IMG/VR virus record: IMGVR_UViG_3300032226_000905
Coordinates: 1 to 64,000 of that record
Length of the DNA stretch: 64,000 nucleotides
Origin: a virus
Taxonomy: Duplodnaviria > Caudoviricetes
Reading direction: 5' to 3' (one strand)
Notes under the pieces: generated by a model
The model's input: the letters and a program-made list of their open reading frames with translations, nothing else
What the model was told of the DNA's origin: nothing
Database searches by the model: none
Shown: positions 1,011-54,444 of the stretch, one piece after another
How positions within the stretch are numbered: the stretch's first letter is position 1
Layout: each line of letters starts with the position of its first letter
Program-made: the position numbers and the translations under genes

Positions 1011-1234
1011 ATAGACAACAATCCTTTACACAGGACTTGAATTTCATCTCTGGTCATATGAAAATTATATGTACTATAGCTAGCAACTTCTCCCTTTTCG
1101 TCTAGAGATTCTTGTATAAAATCTATAGCCATCAAACCTTCGGGTTTCATACACTCCCAAGATTCCACACGAACTCTAAATGCAGAAGTTTCTTTAACTG
1201 TAATGTTTTTAATATTTAAACTAGGATGTTTCAT
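1007..1234 (-). CDS. Hypothetical protein
   Basis: 75-aa ORF with overlapping start/stop coupling. Confidence 0.6.
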   Translation of the reverse strand: MKHPSLNIKNITVKETSAFRVRVESWECMKPEGLMAIDFIQESLDEKGEVASYSTYNFHMTRDEIQVLCKGLLSI

Positions 1235-1575
1235 CTCTTTAATGCCTCCATCATAACAATTTTAGCTAATGCATCACCTAGATCTTGATCTTCAGTGATA
1301 ACGTGCATACTATTAAAGTTTCGATCTTTATGACTATCGTAACTACGAGTTTCTACAACATATCCACCACTTGCTTTATAAATCTGAAGACGCATACCAT
1401 CACTAGATAGTCTGTCTGATTCTACAATCTGCGGAATATCTTCTTCACAATCGTCACTGTTTAACCAGTTACGAACACGCTGTTTGAATGATAGTTTCAC
1501 TTTTTTTACCTTTCTTATTCTTCGCTGTTTATTTGCTGAGGTAATAGTAGCGATTGCCTGTCCATAATTACTCAT
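1231..1575 (-). CDS. Hypothetical protein
   Basis: Start reassigned to ATG 1575 (MSNYGQ), which overlaps the upstream TGA. Confidence 0.6.
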   Translation of the reverse strand: MSNYGQAIATITSANKQRRIRKVKKVKLSFKQRVRNWLNSDDCEEDIPQIVESDRLSSDGMRLQIYKASGGYVVETRSYDSHKDRNFNSMHVITEDQDLGDALAKIVMMEALKR

Positions 1576-2105
1576 TTGAGTATCTCGTCTTTGCCATATT
1601 GATCCCAATCAGTGAAGCGATCTCTTCCTAACAGGTCCTGTAGGTTATGACACCAAACCCCAGAATTAGTTGCTGCAAAATCTTTATCGTCGATTTTTAA
1701 TGTAGCATTGTAGCCTAGCTGTTGTATATAAGGTAATTTTACACTAATTTGCGGAATAAATCTACGCTTTTCGGTAAGACCGCTCTCTAGCAATCCTTCC
1801 GTTTCTGATACATCAAAGTCTAAGGTACACCACAATTCATCTTCAGCATCGAGACAGACATAGATCATGTTTTCCCACGGACGCCAAGTTTCAATATCAT
1901 TGATACCGTTTGTTTTAAAACTTTGATTAGCACCAAAGTAAATATGCCGACAATTATTATTGCGAGCGAGCTCAAGAATAACATAGGGATCATGAACACC
2001 AACAACAAAAAGTGTCCGAAGCCCAAATGCTGGTGTCTTTTCAATTTCTATCCCTGTAAAGAATGTGATGTTGTTTGCTTTACCTGATTCATAATTTCTT
2101 TGCAT
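1572..2105 (-). CDS. Conserved dpdA-cluster protein, possible modification enzyme (DpdM-like?)
   Basis: FFTGIEIEKTPAFGLRTLFVVG and HIYFGANQSF motifs; position in dpdA operon; the family assignment is a weak recollection only. Confidence 0.35.
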   Translation of the reverse strand: MQRNYESGKANNITFFTGIEIEKTPAFGLRTLFVVGVHDPYVILELARNNNCRHIYFGANQSFKTNGINDIETWRPWENMIYVCLDAEDELWCTLDFDVSETEGLLESGLTEKRRFIPQISVKLPYIQQLGYNATLKIDDKDFAATNSGVWCHNLQDLLGRDRFTDWDQYGKDEILK

Positions 2106-2314
2106 TACCATGTACTCATGTCAGTAATATCCACGGTAGTATCTACATCCTTGTCCGTGTCATTAAAAAGGTTAAATTTAACAGTCACCGCAGGTCCGAT
2201 ACCGTTGCTGTTGTTTGATTCTAAAGTAAACCACTCTACTTCTTTAAAGTGAATAACTATTTTAGCAAGTTTTTCAACTTGAGTACGATTGAGAACAAAA
2301 GTATTTGTTGACAT
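2105..2314 (-). CDS. Hypothetical protein
   Basis: 69-aa ORF, translationally coupled. Confidence 0.55.
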   Translation of the reverse strand: MSTNTFVLNRTQVEKLAKIVIHFKEVEWFTLESNNSNGIGPAVTVKFNLFNDTDKDVDTTVDITDMSTW

Positions 2315-2321
2315 TGTGTGC

Positions 2322-2498
2322 CTATGTGTGAAGTTGTTTGTGCTTTAGTATAGCAATTTCGTCTTTTAAATGCAACCTCTGTTTCTTCAATTCTTCAAGT
2401 TTTAAGTCCTCGAACAGGCCATTTTTTTCCAAATTATCTATCTGTTTATCCAAAGCACGATGTGCTTCTTCCAAATGCTTGATTCGATTTTCGTACAT
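2322..2498 (-). CDS. DUF465/YdcH-like small coiled-coil protein
   Basis: Not in ORF track; MYENRIKHLEEAHRALDKQIDNLEKNGLFEDLKLEELKKQRLHLKDEIAILKHKQLHT with H-x-x-LD and LKK-x-x-L-x-LKDEI pattern; AAGGAG SD upstream. Confidence 0.7.
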   Translation of the reverse strand: MYENRIKHLEEAHRALDKQIDNLEKNGLFEDLKLEELKKQRLHLKDEIAILKHKQLHT

Positions 2499-2507
2499 AA
2501 AAACTCC

Positions 2508-4046
2508 TTATTCAACTTTGAGATTGTCTAGAGATTCATCTTCCCGGTCGTCTTGCCATGAAGTTTCATCTTCTTCTTCCTCATAGAACAGAGTATTGGC
2601 GATGTTTGTTACACCTCCACGTAATCTTGCTCCTTCGAGATTTTGTAAAAAACCAAGTCGTTCTGCTTCAGTGATCATTTCAAAAGCCTCGTCTTTGGTT
2701 TTCGAGTTAAACAGTTCTTCAACAAATCGATTGAAATAAAGAATATTGCGTGGAACCCATTCGCTCATTTCGTCGGATTTATCAGCATCTTTGACCTTGC
2801 GCCAACGTCTCCAATCTGGACGATGTTTGGCATATTCGATATCCATTAGATTATTAGAACGCTGTACTGCACGGATATGACATTCCACATTATGCCCCAT
2901 CATTAGAGCATAAGCAAAACTGTCCCACGATGTTTTACCTTCTTTGCCAATCTTGTTTAGCATTCCTGGTGCATAGTGGCATATGTCAGCAATAGACAAG
3001 CGTCGTCCAAAGTCGCTTTCGAACGGGAAAGGAATATCGTGCCGTCCGGCAAGACCCTTATTATCTGGTGCCTTGTCCATGATAACTGAGAATCGTTTAG
3101 AGGTGTGTTGGGCGTTAGTATACACAAGTCCGTGAGCGGTTGCGATAAAAGGTGAGGCACAGTCGAACGATATCGTGAAGTTTTCATTTACATGTTTCCT
3201 TATTTGACGCTGAATGCTGGTTAGGTAACAACTCCAATCTAACTGTGCAGTGCCTAAGAAGTGCATCCAATCCTTGCCTTCTAACATACCATCAAAACGC
3301 ATAGTAACTAACCTGCGTAGTGTAATAGGCATCTTACACATATTAGCACCGCCCATGGCCCAGCCCTCTGCGGCCTTGTCTTCGTAAACGGTGGAGTCAC
3401 TAAATTCTTTTACTCCTTGATACCAAGCTTCAGCATTTTCCCAATTAGATCCTTGTAGAACATTTAAAAATTTAGTTTGACCTAATCTATTTTCTATAAA
3501 ATATTTGTTGTTAAAACGTGTCTTTTCTAGACAGTCTTCGAATGTCTTTAATCCAGTTTTAGGACTATGGATATGATCACAGGCCCATGTCGGAACGTCC
3601 AGCATCATTGACCAATCTGCAGTGAGTTCTAGCCATTCGAGAATTTTCTGTCTTACCTTATTAGCTTCCGCACCTTCAAAGTTTTGCCAGTCAAATTTAA
3701 TAACTCCTTTACCGATTTGATAACCGCCAGAATCACCTAAGATCATTGTTTTAGAACGATCACGATCCTGTATCATCGATTCCTGCACGAGACTTTTTTG
3801 AAGATCTAATTGTGCATGACCCGCTGAATACAAAGCATTTTTATAATAAAAATATCCCTGTTCTGGATTTAAAAAATTCATACCTTCAATACCGCGATCG
3901 AAACCTTTAGGAATACGTTCGTCTGGAATAAATTTTTCTAATCTTTGTTTTGCGATATATGTGCTATAGAAACTACTAATCGCCGGCAAATAGACCGCAT
4001 AGTCTTTCTGTAACGGAGTTAAATCAACTGGCTGTTTGTTCGTCAT
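2508..4046 (-). CDS. dpdA: DNA-guanine transglycosylase (TGT-fold, DpdA; probably DpdA2-like)
   Basis: TGT catalytic motif LGDSGGYQIG, MMLDVP, LNVLQG, GWAMGG, HFLG, SFDCASP in TGT order; 512 aa; next to DNA polymerase. Confidence 0.8.
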   Translation of the reverse strand: MTNKQPVDLTPLQKDYAVYLPAISSFYSTYIAKQRLEKFIPDERIPKGFDRGIEGMNFLNPEQGYFYYKNALYSAGHAQLDLQKSLVQESMIQDRDRSKTMILGDSGGYQIGKGVIKFDWQNFEGAEANKVRQKILEWLELTADWSMMLDVPTWACDHIHSPKTGLKTFEDCLEKTRFNNKYFIENRLGQTKFLNVLQGSNWENAEAWYQGVKEFSDSTVYEDKAAEGWAMGGANMCKMPITLRRLVTMRFDGMLEGKDWMHFLGTAQLDWSCYLTSIQRQIRKHVNENFTISFDCASPFIATAHGLVYTNAQHTSKRFSVIMDKAPDNKGLAGRHDIPFPFESDFGRRLSIADICHYAPGMLNKIGKEGKTSWDSFAYALMMGHNVECHIRAVQRSNNLMDIEYAKHRPDWRRWRKVKDADKSDEMSEWVPRNILYFNRFVEELFNSKTKDEAFEMITEAERLGFLQNLEGARLRGGVTNIANTLFYEEEEDETSWQDDREDESLDNLKVE

Positions 4047-4269
4047 GTGTCAGAGTTCTCTCTTGTATGTTCCAAAAATGTTCAATTGCCTTTTTAGCAG
4101 ATTCATAATTGATGTATTGGCCTAGGTAGCGTTCTTCATTTAGCTCACTGTAAACTCTAGCACCGTAGATATTCGTATGTGCCAGATTATACACCTGACC
4201 GATGATCCTACCATTTTCTTTTTCAAAATAGTAGGACACTTTGTGATCTGCGTCACGCCATTCTTTCAT
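4024..4269 (-). CDS. Hypothetical protein
   Basis: 81-aa ORF between clamp and dpdA. Confidence 0.55.
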   Translation of the reverse strand: MKEWRDADHKVSYYFEKENGRIIGQVYNLAHTNIYGARVYSELNEERYLGQYINYESAKKAIEHFWNIQERTLTHDEQTAS

Positions 4270-4271
4270 AT

Positions 4272-5009
4272 TTAGGCAGCCTGTGCTGGAATAATATATT
4301 TGTAAGTAGCAAGTCCGCTATCTAGTGTAATTTGAATAGCACCTTCATTTGATAACGACATTTTTGTGTTGTTGACATCGGCGATTTTAAGAATGCTCAA
4401 GATTGGTAGTACCGGCCAAGTCCAGCCACGGTCAAGTTTGCCTGCTACATTTTGTGCAAATACAAATTCGCCACCATGTGTCGAAGCATCACCAAAAATA
4501 AACTTTAGATTACCACTGTCTGTTTTAGCAAGAAATGTCGGATGCTCGTTGTTAGCACCGGCCTGGAAATTAAAACGCTGAACAGCGGCTACGGTTGGTT
4601 CAATCTCGACATCCCATTTAACTCCACGAAACTTCACTGTTTTCATCTTTTCGTTGATGATTTCTTGATTCATAAATCGATAATCGTTACGGAAGTCACC
4701 GTCTTTGTTTTCAAAGTGGATACCTACGGGAATAGTTTCGCCATTGCGTTCTGCTGTGGTAATTGAAATTTTTGCATCTTCTTTGTATTCTGCACCATCT
4801 AACAGATATTTTAGTTTATTGAGCTGAGGCATACCGAATACTCCAATCATATCCGAATAAGGATTAGCAGTTTCTGCCTCCATAATCACAGATCGATCAT
4901 CAGCCATTGAATTGATAACTGTGCCTTTTTCTGACCCTGTAACTTTAACCGTTGTTAAAAATCCCAGGTTTTGTGTATGACTTACGATGTCTTGTAAAAT
5001 ATCTTTCAT
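4272..5009 (-). CDS. DNA sliding clamp (gp45/PCNA-like)
   Basis: 245 aa, adjacent to PolB, C-terminal GLATYKYIIP resembles clamp C-terminal strand; PolB ends in clamp-binding-like FNKLFDFE; clamp loader present in window. Confidence 0.6.
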   Translation of the reverse strand: MKDILQDIVSHTQNLGFLTTVKVTGSEKGTVINSMADDRSVIMEAETANPYSDMIGVFGMPQLNKLKYLLDGAEYKEDAKISITTAERNGETIPVGIHFENKDGDFRNDYRFMNQEIINEKMKTVKFRGVKWDVEIEPTVAAVQRFNFQAGANNEHPTFLAKTDSGNLKFIFGDASTHGGEFVFAQNVAGKLDRGWTWPVLPILSILKIADVNNTKMSLSNEGAIQITLDSGLATYKYIIPAQAA

Positions 5010-5034
5010 TTATAGAGTCTCCATGTATAGTAAG

Positions 5035-5063
5035 ATTATATTTAGATCTTGAGAAAAAATCAA
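5035..5063 (-). promoter_or_regulatory. Sigma70-type promoter upstream of clamp gene
   Basis: TTGATT-17 nt-TATAAT. Confidence 0.7.
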
Positions 5064-5071
5064 CCTAGAAA

Positions 5072-7738
5072 TCACTCAAAATCAAACAGTTTGTTGAATG
5101 TATTATCTGACCTTGTTGAACTGATGTCCCATTCCAAAACACCAATTAAATTTTCTAATTTTTCATCGATGACAGTATTTTCCATCTCTGCATCATCGAA
5201 AGGCATGTCCTTGAACCATTGTGGCAATCTAAGTTCGTCTACCGGATAAGCCACTGAAGTATATCCCATTGGGTTATCTTTGAGCTTGCAGACAATAACT
5301 TTGGCTCCATCAACGATCTGCATAGAATACTTGTCATCCATCATTCGTTTTAGTGTATTCCAGTTTAGGCTGGCTCGTACATGACCGGGCATATTAGTTT
5401 TGCCTTGCTTTTTTTCTTTAGCAAGATATTCTGTAATATTATTAGCACGTTTGGGAGAACCCTTTTCCCATCCGGGTCTAGTCTTGAAATCTGTGCGGAA
5501 GTCAGTAATATAATCTAATACTTCTTCTTTGGCCGCACCGTTCAGCACTCGAGTCAATACTTCACTTAGGAAGTCTTGGATAACAACCGGGGTATCTGAC
5601 CTTTTGAGATCCAACCCCATGGCTTTGATTTTTCCTGGGTTACCGTCGATGTCTGATCGTTTTCCTTCTTTGTCGTAGTACAAGACTGCATATCGTTTCT
5701 TAGTAATGAACAGACCTTTCGATGCAACGATTTCACGTCCTGCTTTGATAACTTCTCCTCGACTTTTTGGGCAGTGGAAAGCATCTGACATGAATTTGAT
5801 GAATGTGCCATTTACAGTTTCTCCTATAGTATCGTAGAGTTCAATTACCGATTCTCTGGACCAGGGAATCGTACCTTTCTCAATGTCTTTTTTTAGAGTA
5901 ACATATGCAGAAAAATAACAAGAGTCTGTATCACCGTAGATGATCGCTCGTCCGACATGATCGTATTCGCCCGTGATGATCTCATTGACTTTACCTGCCA
6001 TATGTTTGGCAACTTGCCTGCCAGTTAGTGTAGTCGATTGGCCGATCCTATTATCAAAGAAACGACACCCTGGATTCAAGATAGCACCGTATAAACTGTT
6101 GAGGTTAATCTTTTTGACCAACTGACGCTTATCCCAATATTCTTCTTCGACCTTGTTTCCAGCCTTGATACAATCTTTGAGTTTAGCCTGCATTTCTTTA
6201 CGTTCTTTATACCAACGAGCTAGAAGTCCGGGAATGATTCCTTCTTTTTCATAGGTAAAGATAGTGCCGTTGGCACTTAGCATCCAAGGCTGGTTGCTTT
6301 CGAATATAAGATCGTAGATCTGTGCAGCACTAAGAGTATCGCTGCCGCCATCCTCCCAGTCTATAACAATTTCACGACCTACTTCACGGTTCATAACACT
6401 GGTATATTCTATGCTGCCGAATATACCTTCCCAGGCACCAGCGAAGCTACGTCCCTTTGCCATCTCAGCAGAGATAAAGTCTTTGGTACCGTCTTGTCGA
6501 AGTTGACCTACTATAGTCTCTGGACCCATATTCAAAGCTCGAATTGCCGAAGGATACAGACTGTTGATATCTAGAGAACCAATCCATTCGTGTATTCCTT
6601 TTTTAGGAAATGCAACATACGCACCCGCGGCCGGCTCCGAACCAGGTTCTCTCTGTATTCTATTAGGAACAATCAGCCCTCTACGATGAGCTTCGTTGAT
6701 GATCGCCTGTTCTGTAACAGCCACAGCTCCCATAGTAGTTTGAATCAACACAGTGTTCTCATGAGCAATGGTGTTGGCTAGATCGATAAATTTAAGTTTT
6801 CTATCTAGGTCATCTAACAGCATAGTATCGTTTCTATTATATTCAATGAACTTTTTAAAATCATTGTTGTATAGCTGATCTAATGTGCCTTCGTACTGTG
6901 TCTTTGTTTTACCTAATTCATATTCAGCGATAGCATCTAGTCGATATGTGTGTCTTTCTTCGTAGGTGTATTTTCTATAAAGTTCCAGGCTGTCGATATG
7001 AACACGGCCTATAAGATCATAGGTCACTGCAGTTTTGCCAAATTTTTCATATTCACGCTTTTTGGGAAATTGATTCCAGAGACAGAATCTTCGAGTATCC
7101 TCTTTACTTAGAACTTTAGTAACTCGATTTACAGTGTAAGGAATATCAAAACCTTCTGAGTTCCAACCGCTAAGAACATCGGCATCTTCTATAAGATGCA
7201 GAAATGTATCTAACATGTCTGCTTCATTATCAAATAGTAATGTATTAGGGAATTCTTCTATCTGCTTCTTGGCCTTGTCCATACCGAGTGTTTTGGGAGG
7301 AATAGCGAGACATACAAGACTATCCATCCATTGTAGATGAACAGCGATAGCAGTGATTGGCATAAATGCATCATCGGGTGATGCATACCCACGTTCTGGG
7401 TCGAAGTCTACTTCAATATCGAAAAATGCTATATTGAGTTTTGGAGCATCAACGTTTAGATAATGATCTTCTAGGCAACGGTAAATTGGATTGATATCTG
7501 ATTCATACAGTTTTTTATTTGAATGAATCGCGAGTTCTTTTCGTAGTTCCTTTACATTCTTACAGGTCACACGGGTTAGTGGTTCACCTTTGATTGAATG
7601 AAATTTACCTCGGGGATCTTGATAATAAAAAATATGACGTGCAGGATATTCTTTATAATGTCTCTGACCCTTGTCATCTCGTTCGACAACATTGATCATA
7701 TCCTGATCTCTGTCATAGAAAGCGTCTACATAACTCAA
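5072..7738 (-). CDS. Family B DNA polymerase with 3'-5' exonuclease (gp43-like), TTG start
   Basis: ExoI FDIEVD, ExoII GWNSEGFDIPY, ExoIII YNRND; Pol A DINSLYPS, Pol B KINLNSLYG, Pol C YGDTDS. Confidence 0.95.
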   Translation of the reverse strand: MSYVDAFYDRDQDMINVVERDDKGQRHYKEYPARHIFYYQDPRGKFHSIKGEPLTRVTCKNVKELRKELAIHSNKKLYESDINPIYRCLEDHYLNVDAPKLNIAFFDIEVDFDPERGYASPDDAFMPITAIAVHLQWMDSLVCLAIPPKTLGMDKAKKQIEEFPNTLLFDNEADMLDTFLHLIEDADVLSGWNSEGFDIPYTVNRVTKVLSKEDTRRFCLWNQFPKKREYEKFGKTAVTYDLIGRVHIDSLELYRKYTYEERHTYRLDAIAEYELGKTKTQYEGTLDQLYNNDFKKFIEYNRNDTMLLDDLDRKLKFIDLANTIAHENTVLIQTTMGAVAVTEQAIINEAHRRGLIVPNRIQREPGSEPAAGAYVAFPKKGIHEWIGSLDINSLYPSAIRALNMGPETIVGQLRQDGTKDFISAEMAKGRSFAGAWEGIFGSIEYTSVMNREVGREIVIDWEDGGSDTLSAAQIYDLIFESNQPWMLSANGTIFTYEKEGIIPGLLARWYKERKEMQAKLKDCIKAGNKVEEEYWDKRQLVKKINLNSLYGAILNPGCRFFDNRIGQSTTLTGRQVAKHMAGKVNEIITGEYDHVGRAIIYGDTDSCYFSAYVTLKKDIEKGTIPWSRESVIELYDTIGETVNGTFIKFMSDAFHCPKSRGEVIKAGREIVASKGLFITKKRYAVLYYDKEGKRSDIDGNPGKIKAMGLDLKRSDTPVVIQDFLSEVLTRVLNGAAKEEVLDYITDFRTDFKTRPGWEKGSPKRANNITEYLAKEKKQGKTNMPGHVRASLNWNTLKRMMDDKYSMQIVDGAKVIVCKLKDNPMGYTSVAYPVDELRLPQWFKDMPFDDAEMENTVIDEKLENLIGVLEWDISSTRSDNTFNKLFDFE

Positions 7739-7748
7739 ATTTTTCTCC

Positions 7749-7797
7749 TTTGTGATTTATGGCTCACAAATACCTACATTGCGGATTATGGCCTCGC
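7749..7797 (-). promoter_or_regulatory. Twin hairpins in polymerase 5' leader (candidate translational operator)
   Basis: UUUGUGA-GCCAUAAA-UCACAAA abutting AAGGAG SD, and GCGAG-GCCAUAA-UCCGC; both loops carry GCCAUAA. Confidence 0.5.
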
Positions 7798-7814
7798 CTG
7801 CCATCTACATTTAT

Positions 7815-8108
7815 TTAATTACTTAGCATTCTCACTAGACCTACACTGTCGATAGTGACTAACAAGAGGTAGTTAGCAAGCATGCCAAACGATTTCCTAG
7901 TATAAGCAGCCCAAGCATACATAGCGCAACCAGAGATCCAAATAGGGTACAACGCAAGTAGAGGCGGGTTTGGGACTGTGGCTGCCATAGTAATACTGCA
8001 CCCAATACTGATAGCCCAAGCAAGTAACTCAACAATAAAACGGAAACGATTACTGCGCCAATCATTTTGTATCCAATTTATAGTAGGTCGAAATATGTCA
8101 TTTATCAT
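7815..8108 (-). CDS. Small membrane protein
   Basis: Three hydrophobic segments in 97 aa. Confidence 0.6.
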   Translation of the reverse strand: MINDIFRPTINWIQNDWRSNRFRFIVELLAWAISIGCSITMAATVPNPPLLALYPIWISGCAMYAWAAYTRKSFGMLANYLLLVTIDSVGLVRMLSN

Positions 8109-8375
8109 TTAGTCCTTTTCAGGAAGATTTTTGGTAACACCTAAGATACCTTCAATTTCTTCCCATTCAGCCTCATGCTCTTTCCAATTATCTTTATGAG
8201 CAATTTTAATAGCTTTGTTGATCCAGCTGGGTTTGATCTGCAGTTCTTCTGCTACTGCTTTTACAGTTTCTTTTAGACCTTCTTGGAGATCCTCAACTTC
8301 GCGCAATACATTTGAGCCCTCGTTGATAAGACGTTCGAGTTTAGCTTTTTCTTCGGGACCGTACATTTTTGCCAT
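8109..8375 (-). CDS. dsbA: T4 DsbA-like dsDNA-binding protein
   Basis: Helical 88 aa with AEELQIKPSWINKAIKIAHKDNW...EE.E matching the T4 DsbA pattern (ELG...N...HKDN...EE). Confidence 0.7.
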   Translation of the reverse strand: MAKMYGPEEKAKLERLINEGSNVLREVEDLQEGLKETVKAVAEELQIKPSWINKAIKIAHKDNWKEHEAEWEEIEGILGVTKNLPEKD

Positions 8376-8386
8376 GATTTTTTCCT

Positions 8387-9007
8387 TTAATTTGTTGTAT
8401 AGTTAAAATTACCTGATACTGAGATACGGTAATCGTCTGAAGTGTAAAACGGATATACAGCATGCATTAAACTAGCCGGGAACATCAGCATAGTTCCTTC
8501 CATCTCCTGATCACAGGCTACTAGTAAACTTTTAATCTGACCCAACGTATCTGTATATAAGAATTCAAAATGTCCCGGAACATTGGTGTTACTGTCTTTT
8601 CCGGGTCCTAGATTTTTTTCTTCTTTAGCTGAATACGGAATCTTTAACCAAATAACAAATGATAATATTCCAGCGTGACTATGAGTGGGATTGAACTCAT
8701 GTTTAGTTTGAAAGTTTACCCAACTATAATCTAAACAGAGCTTTGAATTCGATTCTTTTTTATAGTTGTTACGATCTATAAAGTCTTGAGCATCTAGTAA
8801 CAACAAATTTTCAAGGTAGGTTAGATTATTGATTAAAAGAAATTCTTTTTTGATATTACCTGCGAGATCTTGATTAAATTTTTCAGCAGAATCAAAATTG
8901 CCTTTTATCTGAGAGATTTCTTCCCAGATAGGAGATAACTCTTCGGCAGTTAGTTGCCTAGTGAGGTAACCGATGTTCGGGAACGTTCTGTGTACACGCT
9001 GCGTCAT
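8387..9007 (-). CDS. Putative 2OG-Fe(II) oxygenase
   Basis: WVNFQ..HEFNPTHSH, FPASLMHAVYPF, RISVSGN motifs. Confidence 0.8.
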   Translation of the reverse strand: MTQRVHRTFPNIGYLTRQLTAEELSPIWEEISQIKGNFDSAEKFNQDLAGNIKKEFLLINNLTYLENLLLLDAQDFIDRNNYKKESNSKLCLDYSWVNFQTKHEFNPTHSHAGILSFVIWLKIPYSAKEEKNLGPGKDSNTNVPGHFEFLYTDTLGQIKSLLVACDQEMEGTMLMFPASLMHAVYPFYTSDDYRISVSGNFNYTTN

Positions 9008-9013
9008 ATGACT

Positions 9014-9042
9014 ATTATATAGTCATAAAAAAAGCCGGTCAA
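9014..9042 (-). promoter_or_regulatory. Sigma70-type promoter, leaderless start of oxygenase gene
   Basis: TTGACC-17-TATAAT-6 nt-ATG; -10 lies inside palindrome ATGACTAT-TAT-ATAGTCAT (9008-9026). Confidence 0.7.
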
Positions 9043-9057
9043 TGAATAACCGGCTTT
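9027..9057 (-). terminator. Intrinsic terminator
   Basis: AAAGCCGGT/ACCGGCTTT stem followed by T-tract on minus strand after 9077. Confidence 0.75.
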
Positions 9058-9076
9058 ATTTTACCAAAAGGTAAAA

Positions 9077-10033
9077 TTATTTTTGATCTTCGCTTAGAAC
9101 GTCGTACATTTCGAATACACCACCCATTCTTTCGTAGACTAAACCTGCGAAAAGTTCTGATTTCATACCTTCGCCTAGTTTATTTTGAGCAACACGAGTT
9201 GCCCAGGCAAATAGTTCCTTGTCGAGAGGATCAATGGCCTGCTGACCGCCACTTTCTTGTACTAGTTTGGCCATATCTCTGAAAGTCAACGATTGTTCAA
9301 CTGATTCTGCAACTACTTTCTTAGAAGTTTTTACAGACTCATTCTTTTTGCCAAAGTATTTCTCTTGTTTGGCCGACATACCTTTCTTGCCGTCTTTCTT
9401 GTCGCCACCTTTATCAGCAACAGCTTTCTTCATTGGCTCTTTCTTGTCACCGTCTTTGTCCATGTCTAAGAAGTCTGGCTTCGCTGCTTCGTCCATCTTC
9501 TTTTCTTTCTTTGCGGGTTTCCTGGCTTCTTTTACAGATTCTTCTTTTTTCTCACCCTTTTTCTTATCGACCATAGCGAGAAACTTTTCACGTGCAGCTT
9601 TTTGTTTATCGCTGGCTTCTTCGATACTTTCTGAACTGTGTTTTTTAACAGAGTCTTTACCAAAACGTTTTTGCCAATCTTTGCTCTTAGCCTTCTCAGC
9701 TTTGTCTAATTCTCTATCGCCCTTTTTTTCAGCAGCTGATTTAGCTGCCTTAGAAGGCTTAGACTGTGCTGGTTCAGAATTGTCTTCACCATCATAGTCA
9801 TCTTTCTTCTCATGTTTGATACCTTTTTCTGTTTTAGTAACAGTGCCACCTTTGTGGGTCTTTTCAGTATCACCTACTTTCTTTAGTTCTTCAGAAAGAG
9901 GAGTTAGGCCAGCTAATACACGAAACTCAGTGTCTTCATCTAAACGTATAGGTGTGCTTTGTTCTGCACCTTTTGGAAGATCGATCGGACCGTCGATGCT
10001 TTCGATTTTGCTGATAATTGATTTGAAATCCAT
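9077..10033 (-). CDS. Lys/Glu-rich hypothetical protein, putative internal head/core protein
   Basis: Low-complexity K/E/D; repeated (L/I/V/M)-x-E-(A/S) sites (SIEEA, VKEA, MDEA, VAES). Confidence 0.5.
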   Translation of the reverse strand: MDFKSIISKIESIDGPIDLPKGAEQSTPIRLDEDTEFRVLAGLTPLSEELKKVGDTEKTHKGGTVTKTEKGIKHEKKDDYDGEDNSEPAQSKPSKAAKSAAEKKGDRELDKAEKAKSKDWQKRFGKDSVKKHSSESIEEASDKQKAAREKFLAMVDKKKGEKKEESVKEARKPAKKEKKMDEAAKPDFLDMDKDGDKKEPMKKAVADKGGDKKDGKKGMSAKQEKYFGKKNESVKTSKKVVAESVEQSLTFRDMAKLVQESGGQQAIDPLDKELFAWATRVAQNKLGEGMKSELFAGLVYERMGGVFEMYDVLSEDQK

Positions 10034-51365: not shown

Positions 51366-51394
51366 AGCATAACATCGTTATCGCCAGTTGTCAA
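51366..51394 (-). promoter_or_regulatory. Sigma70-type promoter, leaderless
   Basis: TTGACA-17-TATGCT-6 nt-ATG(51359). Confidence 0.7.
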
Positions 51395-52199
51395 CTACAT
51401 ATGGATCCGTTATATCATGTGGATTTGGATCACCGTGAAACACACAGATTGAACAGCCTTTCGGAATAGTTACATCTCTTGCTGTTTTAAAAAATCTACG
51501 GCCGCCACCCATAGTCAGTTCGGACCGATTTCGAATTTCCCATTTGTAGCTCTGTATCCAAATTTCTGGAAAAAATTTAATCCTTGTTTTGGCTACTTGC
51601 CAGATCCAATCTTGATCACCGTGTAATCTCTGAGCTCGGCTCTGATCATTTTTGAACACAGTGTAGATATCTGGATGCAGACCAGCTGGCCAAGTCATGA
51701 CAGAACTGTTGAGAATATTCCATTTAGGATTGAATTTTCTGTTGAAATCTCTGATTCCTAGAAACTCTTGTCCCTGATCTAAAACTAATTTATTGATATT
51801 GTCGTGAATAATTACATCGAGATCCATATACAATATCCTACCCGGTAATTTTAAATCGGGATCGAACATGTGTACCTTGTGCCACCAACCTTTAACGTAT
51901 CCCTGATTAGGATACACAAGACTCTTCACTCCGTCGATGGGATGTTGATCATCGGTTAGGCAATAGAATTCATAGGGGATAGTTAGATGTCTCGAAACCA
52001 TATTGCGAAGTTTTTCCACATAGTCGCGACCGTATTTGGTTCCGAATCTCACACATAGCACAGAAATAGGAGGCCCATTGTATTCTAGTTTAGGCTCTTG
52101 AATTATGGGAGCCGGTACAGGCACATCATCCGGAAGATGTCCAAATCTTTTATAATGCTGCCACTGTTCTTTAGTTAGACCTTCTTTTGACAACTTCAT
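51378..52199 (-). CDS. Glycosyltransferase (GT-A, DxD)
   Basis: [44 protein letters not shown]. Confidence 0.8.
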
Positions 52200-53004
52200 C
52201 TATGGCCACCAATTCTTCTAATATATTTTTTAATTTGTCTAAGTGAACCATATTAGGTCCATCACTAGGAGCTGCATCGGGATTTTCGTGAGTTTCCATA
52301 AACACACCAGCAATACATCCTGTGGCTACAGCCGCCCTCGCCAAGTATGGGACCATAGTTCGATCACCGCCGGATCGTTCTCCCATTCCCCCAGGCTGTT
52401 GGACAGAATGAGTGGCATCAAAGACCACTGGATACCCGGTGCTTGCCATAATGGGTAGACTACGCATATCAACAACAAGATTATTATATCCATGAGTGTA
52501 TCCTCTTTCACATAACATAATACGTTCATTTCCAGTTGAGGCAATTTTTGCCGCAACGTTCTTCATATCGTGGGGTGCAAGAAATTGCCCTTTCTTGACA
52601 TTGATAGCACATCCAGTTTCACCTGCGGCTAGTAATAGATCAGTCTGTCTACATAGGAATGCTGGTATCTGTAGTACATCAATGCCAGCATCTGCAACTA
52701 ATTGTGCTTGATATGATTCATGAATATCAGTTAGAACGGGAATTCCAAATTCATGTTTGATTGAATTTAAAATTTTAAGTCCTTCGTCAATACCTATTCC
52801 TCTTTTAGTAGAGATGCTAGATCTATTAGCTTTGTCAAAACTGCTTTTGTAAACTAAATCGATATCTAATTCGTCGCAGATTTCTTTTATACTACCTGCT
52901 AAAAATTCGGCATGACTCTGACTTTCAATTTGGCAGGGTCCGGCTATAATAAAGATTTTATTATCGTTGCCGGCAACGATTCGATTGATAGAAAGTGATT
53001 TCAC
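52171..53004 (-). CDS. kdsA: KDO-8-phosphate synthase
   Basis: [61 protein letters not shown]. Confidence 0.95.
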
Positions 53005-53203: not shown

Positions 53204-53724
53204 CCTTCGTATGTGGCTGAGTTGCCTGCATGTTCAAATACTTCTACTGAACGAAGACGAACACCTCGCCCAACAGGATATCGTGCTTCAAATATACGAC
53301 CATCAGGATGTGTCCAGCCATCGCCTGTTTGATAAGAATTGAGTATTTCGTTCATTGTACGATACGCTAGTTCAGCAAACTTTTCACAGCCCACAGCTTC
53401 TACGATACGTAGGTCACAAATGCCACCATCGGCCTGTTTGCCTAATTTGGCCATTTGTTTGAAAAGTTCTAAATGAGGGTCGTCTGAACCTACACACAGA
53501 GTATGATCAAACTGCCACTCCGACCATTCTTTGAATGCTTTGAGTCCACCGAAGTCCATGACCCAATTACGATCGTCTAGGGTTTCTGATTCAAAGATTA
53601 GTTTGATACCGATTGAGTATCCGTGTAGTAATGAGCAATGACTGTGAGTTGATCGCCATTGTCTAAAACAGCATGACAGGCCTCTGTCATTGCCGTAGGT
53701 TTTTGTTGAAAGATATTTCGCCAT
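53200..53724 (-). CDS. queD: 6-carboxytetrahydropterin synthase QueD
   Basis: CSLLHGY, WVMDFG, FDH, CEKFAE, VEVFE; start MAKY at 53724 with AGGAGG SD. Confidence 0.85.
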   Translation of the reverse strand: MAKYLSTKTYGNDRGLSCCFRQWRSTHSHCSLLHGYSIGIKLIFESETLDDRNWVMDFGGLKAFKEWSEWQFDHTLCVGSDDPHLELFKQMAKLGKQADGGICDLRIVEAVGCEKFAELAYRTMNEILNSYQTGDGWTHPDGRIFEARYPVGRGVRLRSVEVFEHAGNSATYEG

Positions 53725-53758
53725 CTCTTGCCTCCTATGCATAAAGCGAGTAAGTTTG

Positions 53759-53809
53759 ATGACATGCAGAATTTATAAAGCGGGTTGAATGCCATGGAAG
53801 ACCGCTGAT
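53759..53809 (-). ncRNA. Candidate preQ1-I-like riboswitch aptamer in queD leader
   Basis: P1 AGCGG/CCGCU, U after P1, AC before P1 3' strand, UUAUAAA tail, P2 AUGGCAU/AUGUCAU; begins at predicted TSS. Confidence 0.5.
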
Positions 53810-54444
53810 GAACTATTATAAGATATATTTAACGTAAATGCAACATCAAATGTTGAAATGCGGACATTCTTTTTTCGCCATTCTTCGGGGCACTGCCATT
53901 CTTTGAAATTGATAATATTGAACTCGGTGTCAGGATAATAATGAAATACTCGCTCGATCTGATATCTCCAATATGAAGGATCTACGGCCGTTGATGCAGA
54001 ACTGGAATAGTTGTCAGTATCTCTGTAAATATTATTGACACGACCCTGCCTTCCGTAGAGATCCATCCCAACGATATCTATAGATTTAAATCCAAGCCTG
54101 GCTGCTAAAAGAACTGCATACGGGCCACTGCCCCAATGTTCTGGATTATCGGGACGGTGTTTACTCTGATAGGGCAATTCGGGTAATAGTTTTACATTTT
54201 TATTTTTTTCTATCTTACGGAAATAATGATGCCAGTGATTTCTTACATAGATTGTAGTAGAGTCTGTATTGGGATTTTCTAAAGCTTCTCTCACCATTCT
54301 TTGGTCACAGCAGATTAAATGATCTACAATAAGATCTCTATGCACGGCATTGCAACCGATCAATGTGTGAGTATTTTTTAGTAGAGAAATATCAAGACTT
54401 TTACGACTTTCGCCGTTGCCGATGACTAGGGCTTTTGAGCCCAT
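53773..54444 (-). CDS. MAF/DUF115-like putative glycosyltransferase
   Basis: ALVIGNGESR, IGCNA, GSGPYA, IDIVGMDL motifs; start MGSK at 54444. Confidence 0.6.
   Translation of the reverse strand: MGSKALVIGNGESRKSLDISLLKNTHTLIGCNAVHRDLIVDHLICCDQRMVREALENPNTDSTTIYVRNHWHHYFRKIEKNKNVKLLPELPYQSKHRPDNPEHWGSGPYAVLLAARLGFKSIDIVGMDLYGRQGRVNNIYRDTDNYSSSASTAVDPSYWRYQIERVFHYYPDTEFNIINFKEWQCPEEWRKKNVRISTFDVAFTLNISYNSSSAVFHGIQPAL
53815..53843 (-). promoter_or_regulatory. Sigma70-type promoter of queD
   Basis: TTGCAT-17-TATAAT. Confidence 0.7.

Follow-up and report, generated by a model that had tools for sequence, protein, structure and literature searches.

A conserved pseudoknot that competes with a start-codon hairpin in the queD leader of freshwater jumbo phages: a candidate riboswitch-like ON switch

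Does the leader of a phage queD gene carry an RNA switch, and if so, of what kind is it and in which direction does it act? The question is raised by a 64,000-nt stretch of viral DNA (the window hereafter; positions 1 to 64,000 of the IMG/VR virus record IMGVR_UViG_3300032226_000905, Caudoviricetes), in which a first-pass annotation made from the letters alone had marked a riboswitch-like pseudoknot ahead of queD, the gene for a PTPS/QueD-like 6-carboxy-tetrahydropterin synthase. The window is part of an 86-kb fragment and the virus record is estimated to be 23 % complete. To our knowledge, few riboswitch classes occur in phages, and the 7-deazaguanine pathway by which phages protect their DNA has no known one. 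We find a 48-nt H-type pseudoknot at 53806-53759 on the minus strand, with a TATAAT box upstream and the queD start (53724) downstream of it. The first-pass annotation was right in kind: a riboswitch-like pseudoknot precedes this phage queD. From the comparison of homologous leaders we consider it rather probable that the queD (or queD-queE) mRNA of the phage carries in its 5' leader a cis-acting RNA ON switch, riboswitch-like in nature.

From 5' to 3' the aptamer consists of the P1 5' strand, loop L1, the P2 5' strand, loop L2, the P1 3' strand, loop L3 and the P2 3' strand (P1 and P2 being the two helices; Table 1). P2 of the window, AUGGCAU/AUGUCAU, has 7 bp including one G-U pair. QueD relatives were found at 594 loci in IMG/VR; the leaders of the 80 loci that were kept carry the same element with obvious compensatory changes. 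A second IMG/VR scan used a pattern of the invariant loop letters alone, to avoid selecting on queD or on P1 complementarity. Among the 120 matches listed, the three variable P1 pairs are all complementary in 113 and two of the three in 6, with 1 false positive.

We assembled 142 distinct aptamers from IMG/VR phage contigs in an alignment anchored on the invariant UCANC and CUGC blocks. P1 is paired in 97-100 % of them and occurs in seven fully paired variants (AGCGG, AGAGG, AGUGG, UGCGG, ACCGG, AUCGG and GGCGG). At the five core pairs of P2, 82-91 % of the sequences are paired and as many as four Watson-Crick types occur at one position; slid registers reach 8-54 %, with a few single columns higher. 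Anchored counting was used for P2 because MAFFT and a P1-only model leave a one-column P2 shift in some subfamilies. Double compensatory changes occur in 10 of 12 pairs in a model-made alignment of 101 distinct sequences, for which the model encodes P1 alone and P2 was not fitted. The covariation score is 0.418, compared to 0.147 shuffled (0 of 500 shuffles reach the observed value) and at most 0.107 in slid registers. A plain MAFFT alignment of the queD-derived set gives agreeing pair counts. The P1 variants recur in the different expression-platform classes described below, indicating that the changes arose repeatedly.

A covariance model built from the homologues (R1) scores the window site at 67.8 bits (E about 2e-25), the next best match in the 86-kb record reaching 14.9 bits. 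The single-sequence minimum free energy (MFE) of the window is unremarkable (z = +0.42), a value that is uninformative because a pseudoknot cannot be scored by MFE folding. Both helices read in the window by the first-pass annotation, P1 AGCGG/CCGCU and the 7-bp P2, are confirmed, as each covaries across 101-142 distinct homologues; covariation among homologous leaders, the check it had proposed, is strong.

The loops are the most conserved parts of the element while the helices vary. L1 follows the pattern N-C-U plus 0-6 nt, with C and U present in 142/142 aptamers and the first position divided between U (51), A (46) and C (45). L2 reads U-C-A-[U/C/A]-C; its U, A and final C are invariant and the C at position 2 is found in 141/142. 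The dinucleotide 5' of the P1 3' strand is UC in 71 %, CC in 20 % and AC in 9 %, its final C being present in 142/142. L3 is fixed at 13 nt in 142/142 with the pattern N-U-A-N-A-N-A-Y-U-C-U-G-C, in which the UCUGC block and three A residues (positions 3, 5 and 7) vary hardly or not at all. Altogether about 20 unpaired nucleotides are invariant in the family. A U after P1 and an AC before the P1 3' strand, both pointed out at first as preQ1-I signatures, are therefore true of the window and not of the family.

How could such a pseudoknot control queD? The MFE structure of the window leader lacks P2 and instead contains a hairpin over the start codon, in which GUCAUC (53763-53758) pairs with GAUGGC (53725-53720). 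This sequestor is extended by CUU/AAG and by an anti-Shine-Dalgarno (anti-SD) segment, CUC.CU (53750-53745), paired with AG.GAG of the SD (53736-53731). Since GUCAU also belongs to the P2 3' strand, the pseudoknot and the sequestor exclude each other. The P2 5' strand of the window resembles the start-codon region AUGGC, and the 34-nt spacer between the P2 3' strand and the queD AUG holds the SD.

The same competition is found throughout the family with different partners. We sorted the leaders into four classes, A, B and D comprising 85 distinct leaders and C about 50. In classes A, B and D the sequestor pairs G-[U/C]-C-[A/G]-U-[C/U] with [G/A]-A-U-G-[G/A]-C, and these positions are 96-100 % paired in the 85 leaders; the non-coding -1 position covaries (C-G in 64, U-A in 17). 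In class D the P2 5' strand (GACUU), the P2 3' strand (AAGUC) and the start region (GAUGACUU) all differ jointly from the other classes. In class C, CCUAUG starts with the CC of the P2 3' strand and is paired to CAUAGG of the SD, and compensated variants such as CCUAUA/UAUAGG occur. The P2 3' strand can thus pair with the start codon (A, B, D) or with the SD (C), both alternatives covary, and a single conserved aptamer is joined to at least four expression platforms.

When the P2 3' strand is blocked, the mean computed unpaired probability of the SD-AUG region rises from 0.47 to 0.59 over 141 leaders, increasing by more than 0.15 in 69 and decreasing in 5, at a platform cost of about 5 kcal/mol. 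For the window the energies are -5.3 kcal/mol for the P2 duplex, -7.2 for the sequestor base helix and -11.4 for the whole sequestor hairpin. By these nearest-neighbour energies the sequestor would be the default state, in which queD would not be translated. Stabilization of the pseudoknot would hold the P2 3' strand, free the start codon and SD and allow translation of queD. Since the strand that masks the start codon or SD is the 3' strand of P2, translation should be activated when the pseudoknot folds, and in this model we regard activation as probable.

The feedback-OFF logic implied by the earlier proposal is the reverse of what this wiring predicts. Two further pairings that it offered did not hold either: the second UCGCU copy, suggested as an alternative P1 partner, is present in a subset of leaders only and there forms the anti-SD arm of the sequestor hairpin, and the UGCAU/AUGCA pairing over the SD (UUCUGCAU) is not conserved among close relatives. 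That the pseudoknot itself and the mutually exclusive sequestor are real we hold, on the comparative evidence, to be very likely.

A comparable arrangement is known from the add adenine riboswitch of Vibrio vulnificus, where an aptamer strand is common to the helix that sequesters the ribosome-binding site (RBS) and ligand-stabilised folding frees the RBS. There, as in the phage element, the switch strand of the aptamer doubles in the sequestor of the SD or start codon. The folds differ, add being a three-way junction and the element an H-type pseudoknot, and the element stands in a phage setting. By analogy, a translational ON riboswitch such as add appears to be the nearest mechanistic counterpart.

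To estimate how widespread the element is and which genes it precedes, we looked at related genomes and at the loci derived from the pattern scan. Model R1 finds one strong copy (50-68 bits) per record in the window record and four related ones (236-382 kb, two of them 98-100 % complete); all other R1 matches in the five records are at or below 15.5 bits. In all five the copy lies directly upstream of the sole PTPS gene, and R1 found no further copies before FolE or QueE in these records. The first downstream gene is PTPS-like in at least 114 of the approximately 118 pattern-derived loci, and the exceptions have PTPS second. The downstream PTPS genes have at least two very different N-termini, some loci carry a clear queE after queD, and one locus has a canonical HGH-type QueD first. 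At locus L020:2576-3525 the motif is followed by two tandem PTPS genes, first a canonical CxxxHGH-type QueD (141 aa) and next one of the phage 'HGY' type. On L091 an intact copy (L091:998-1054) has about 1 kb upstream of it a second, degenerate one (L091:4-59, plus strand; 25.6 bits), in which P1 and the CUGC block are altered.

Hundreds of IMG/VR contigs carry the element. A blastn search for the motif in 50,697 phage records found nothing, and the model finds no motif before the queD genes of five cultured phages, Flavobacterium phage immuto, Sinorhizobium phage Phosso, Achromobacter phage Motura, Stenotrophomonas phage Mendera and Pseudomonas phage Iggy. Among the first 120 matches listed from a bacterial and archaeal collection (185,579 species genomes), two are real and both are on small contigs of metagenome-assembled genomes (L247 and L300), which are probably mis-binned phage DNA. 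The element belongs to uncultured freshwater jumbo phages.

What would stabilize the pseudoknot? The general anatomy of a riboswitch is present, with a conserved aptamer, invariant loop and junction nucleotides, variable platforms and a location in the leader of a metabolic gene. The stabilizer would most likely be a small molecule held in a pocket of the invariant loop nucleotides at the P1-P2 junction, and the element would then represent a new class with a preQ1-I-like fold. Judged from the pattern of conservation, a small-molecule effector is the option we moderately favour. SAM-II/SAM-V, fluoride and guanidine-III riboswitches resemble the element as compact 40-60 nt pseudoknots with invariant junction nucleotides, and THF-I/THF-II recognize the guanine-like pterin face, a plausible type of ligand for the element; none of these Rfam families matches it at E <= 10. 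Literature searches for a queD-leader or phage preQ1-type motif found nothing relevant.

The main rival explanation, which we judge unlikely, is a translational operator recognized by a phage or host protein, for example QueD or a general phage regulator, on the model of T4 gp32. H-type pseudoknots in phage leaders are known to bind proteins, as in T4 gene 32: the pseudoknot in its leader nucleates cooperative gp32 binding, which represses translation. Gene 32 seems to be the nearest analogue among phage leader pseudoknots, as both are H-type, lie in the 5' leader of a phage gene and serve translational control, although the queD pseudoknot, unlike that of gene 32, competes with an RBS sequestor before a metabolic enzyme gene. 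Invariant loop nucleotides fit a protein site as well as they fit a ligand pocket, and confinement to one phage lineage is expected under co-evolution with a lineage-specific protein. However, the element precedes divergent PTPS N-termini, HGH-type QueD and rarely other first genes, so that autoregulation by the gene product would need a conserved partner elsewhere. The small size, the junction-centred conservation and the metabolic gene are moreover typical of a small pseudoknot riboswitch.

Less likely still is a ligand-independent device in which co-transcriptional kinetics, temperature, Mg2+ or coupling to ribosomes on the upstream open reading frame (ORF) tunes queD. The overlap with the end of that ORF, noted from the start as a caveat, is real in the window, where the last ~25 codons cover the promoter and the 5' half of the pseudoknot. 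The ORF stops inside L3 here and in many relatives, and a ribosome terminating there would disrupt P1 and mask the 3' strand of P2. Transcription of the pseudoknot also precedes that of the start codon, so kinetic control would be possible. Yet the homologous upstream protein of relatives often ends 20-80 nt or >600 nt ahead of P1 and elsewhere >1000 nt, and in one genome the gene upstream is FolE, while the element is unchanged at these many loci. The varied distance from P1 shows that the overlap is not a conserved coding feature. The number of invariant unpaired nucleotides also exceeds the need of a folding timer or thermometer. Separately, we considered whether conservation of the element is a by-product of the overlapping ORF and rejected this, the element being unchanged where the ORF ends well upstream or where another gene sits there.

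The remaining question of kind is whether the element belongs to preQ1-I. It shares with this class the H-type fold, a 5-bp P1 ending GG/CC, a C directly 5' of the P1 3' strand, an early L3 that is U/A-rich with conserved adenines, and a position upstream of queuosine/7-deazaguanine pathway genes. In preQ1-I the base before the specificity cytosine 5' of the P1 3' strand is U in type I and A in types II and III, and conserved L1 uridine(s) directly after the P1 5' strand contact the ligand (PMC11625349). The final C of L2 in the element stands at the place of this ligand-pairing cytosine (PMC11625349), mostly with a U before it as in type I. The element also differs from preQ1-I. The aptamer measures 48 nt compared to about 34 for preQ1-I, P2 has 5-7 bp compared to 3-4, L1 has a variable first nucleotide followed by invariant CU in place of the conserved U/UU, and the fixed 13-nt L3 with its invariant UCUGC block is unlike that of preQ1-I. 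The wiring is opposite, as the P2 3' strand of preQ1-I contains SD bases and ligand represses, whereas in the element it is the anti-start/anti-SD strand; a review describes only repressing mechanisms for all five preQ1 motifs (PMC11625349). The element, unlike preQ1-I, is known from phage contigs only. The preQ1-I-like layout first proposed stands for the H-type fold, the 5-bp P1, the invariant C and the A-containing L3, and falls for the L1 uridine and the logic; L1, L3 and P2 are larger than in preQ1-I.

Membership was searched for directly. Rfam 15 at gathering threshold gives no match at the site in the window, and none of 4227 Rfam families matches at E <= 10 in 351 nt around the site or in the leader of one relative. 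RF00522, the preQ1-I model (gathering threshold 39 bits), yields 16 weak matches at E <= 10 over the five phage genomes and none at the motif, so that the Infernal check suggested at the outset speaks against membership. In the absence of model matches we rejected preQ1-I, II and III (RF00522, RF01054, RF02680), pistol, fluoride, SAM-II and THF as families for the element. A diverged ordinary preQ1-I riboswitch, repressing queD when preQ1 or preQ0 accumulates, is very improbable: the layout (5-bp P1 with GG/CC, invariant C mostly after U, A residues in L3; PMC11625349) and the association with a que gene speak for it, but no Rfam model matches, the L1 uridine is not conserved, the P2 3' strand lacks the SD and its alternative pairing with start codon or SD gives ON rather than OFF control, and preQ1 may not be made at all given that neither TGT/DpdA nor a full QueC is detectable in the genomes examined. 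By its apparent mode of action we place the element with the small pseudoknot riboswitches, possibly as a distant relative of preQ1-I and not as a member of that family.

We also addressed where transcription of the leader may start. The first-pass annotation had proposed a promoter, TTGCAT-17-TATAAT, which is present in the window as described and is not confirmed as a general feature of the family. The -10 hexamer is perfect, the -35 hexamer agrees with TTGACA at 3 of 6 positions, and a promoter scan of the window made no call at this pair. In class B a TAnnnT box ends exactly 7 nt 5' of P1 in 11 of 17 leaders, and in classes A and D it ends 6-8 nt 5' of P1 in 27 of 72; this spacing is consistent with transcripts that start at the aptamer. 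In class C almost every loop that separates the anti-SD CCUAUG from CAUAGG-SD has the sequence TGnTAnnnT, in most cases TGCTATAAT or TGCTAAAAT (for example L009:2965-2995, L146 and L039). TGnTAnnnT is an extended -10-like box and may be an internal promoter, which would give rise to a short-leader queD mRNA that escapes the switch.

Several points weigh against a ligand-responsive ON switch. Covariation in the sequences shows structure and not ligand binding, and a protein or other factor could stabilize the pseudoknot equally well. Because the aligned sequences share ancestry, the number of covarying cells overstates that of independent events, even with variants recurring across classes. The default-OFF state is drawn from helix energies alone, the energy of a pseudoknot not being computable by these methods. 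In class C the gain in accessibility upon blocking P2 is modest, and with its -10-like box the class C platform may yield an unregulated transcript. Finally, pathway metabolites seldom switch biosynthetic genes ON.

If a small molecule is sensed, which one might it be? A ligand with a guanine-like Watson-Crick face would suit the invariant C that adjoins P1. This suggests as candidates the pterins (the QueD substrate 7,8-dihydroneopterin triphosphate, H2NTP; neopterin; folates), the 7-deazapurines (7-carboxy-7-deazaguanine, CDG; preQ0; preQ1) and guanine/GTP. As the effector, preQ1 itself is a poor candidate, improbable at best. Sensing of substrate or supply fits the ON logic better than end-product feedback.

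The genomic context provides some indication of the pathway. Phages annotated with 7-deazaguanine genes commonly have a QueD of the window type. The window protein shares 47 % identity with the QueD of Pseudomonas phage Iggy, encoded there in a QueE-QueC-QueD-FolE-DpdA cluster, and its PDB matches are 6-carboxy-tetrahydropterin (CPH4) synthases. Both the window and the Iggy protein have CSLLHGY at the site of CGRLHGH in E. coli QueD, which implies that one presumed zinc-binding histidine is replaced in this phage QueD subfamily. Genes for FolE and a QueE-like radical SAM enzyme are present in the related near-complete genomes; TGT/DpdA and full-length QueC were not detected in the five genomes, which gave weak partial QueC-like matches only. 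Past the end of the window, the similarity of two ORFs of ~311 aa (G000:C1:72553-72774 and 77751-77954) to QueC is confined to its N-terminal PP-loop part (22-26 bits); they are PP-loop ATPases, not clear QueC orthologues.

A 236-kb relative shows a longer gene order on one strand (L216, that is G005:C1:98500-110500; minus strand 1225-9765). It runs FolE, motif, PTPS, a 288-aa ORF, a 669-aa B12-binding radical SAM enzyme, a 178-aa phosphoribosyltransferase, a 242-aa ORF, a QueE-like radical SAM enzyme and MetK, the 288- and 242-aa ORFs having no assigned function. This order, together with the lack of TGT/DpdA and the weak partial QueC matches, indicates that the end product may not be preQ0 or preQ1 and suggests a 7-deazapurine route at the nucleotide level. 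Such a route resembles the phosphoribosyltransferase step of tubercidin and toyocamycin biosynthesis more than base exchange by DpdA. At slightly less than even confidence, we tentatively propose a new riboswitch class, so far known from viruses only: a preQ1-I-like fold rewired to ON, sensing a guanine-like pterin or 7-deazapurine (H2NTP, folate, CDG/preQ0) and gating GTP-derived carbon into a phage 7-deazapurine pathway.

The features of the window locus are collected in Table 1. Within queD a terminator-like hairpin (7-bp stem) with a U-run lies at 53673-53690 on the minus strand, ~35-50 nt past the start codon; it could be an attenuator or could coincide with the conserved GLSCCFRQ coding sequence. 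Downstream of queD, at 51378-53004 on the minus strand, are a KdsA-like Kdo-8-phosphate synthase gene (PF00793, E = 3e-73) and an ORF of ~270 aa without assigned function. The order queD, KdsA-like gene, ~270-aa ORF is also found at an independent locus (L168), and a pterin/deazapurine enzyme beside a sugar-acid synthase recurs.

Table 1. Positions of the promoter-like boxes, aptamer parts, expression platform and genes at the queD locus of the window
Feature	Position	Strand	Remarks
TTGCAT (-35-like)	53843-53838	-	seen in the sequence; 17-nt spacer to TATAAT
TATAAT (-10)	53820-53815	-	8 nt separate the box from P1; with TTGCAT a putative sigma-70-type promoter, 53815..53843
P1 5' strand AGCGG	53806-53802	-	partner 53783-53779
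L1 UCUUCC	53801-53796	-	
P2 5' strand AUGGCAU	53795-53789	-	conserved core is the 3'-most 5 nt
L2 UCAAC	53788-53784	-	terminal C borders P1
P1 3' strand CCGCU	53783-53779	-	
L3 UUAUAAAUUCUGC	53778-53766	-	13 nt
P2 3' strand AUGUCAU	53765-53759	-	common 'switch' strand
Sequestor hairpin (expression platform)	53720..53763	-	MFE structure of the leader
SD AGGAGG	53736-53731	-	
queD AUG	53724-53722	-	
queD, PTPS/QueD-like 6-carboxy-tetrahydropterin synthase, 174 aa	53200..53724	-	Pfam PF01242, E = 5e-13
Upstream ORF, 242 aa	54501-53773	-	no Pfam match; TAA stop 53775-53773 inside L3

If the proposed reading is true, the element would give a viral nucleobase-modification pathway its first dedicated riboswitch and the preQ1 family its first activating relative. 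It would show how rewiring can turn a preQ1-I-like fold from an OFF into an ON switch, and would provide a compact ON-switch part for synthetic biology. Being small (48 nt), abundant and cleanly covarying, the element is ready for biochemical ligand screening. Should a protein bind instead, the element would be a new translational operator of phages, and one whose switch mechanism is well defined. The discovery of a ligand would show what these jumbo phages monitor before they commit GTP-derived precursors to base modification.

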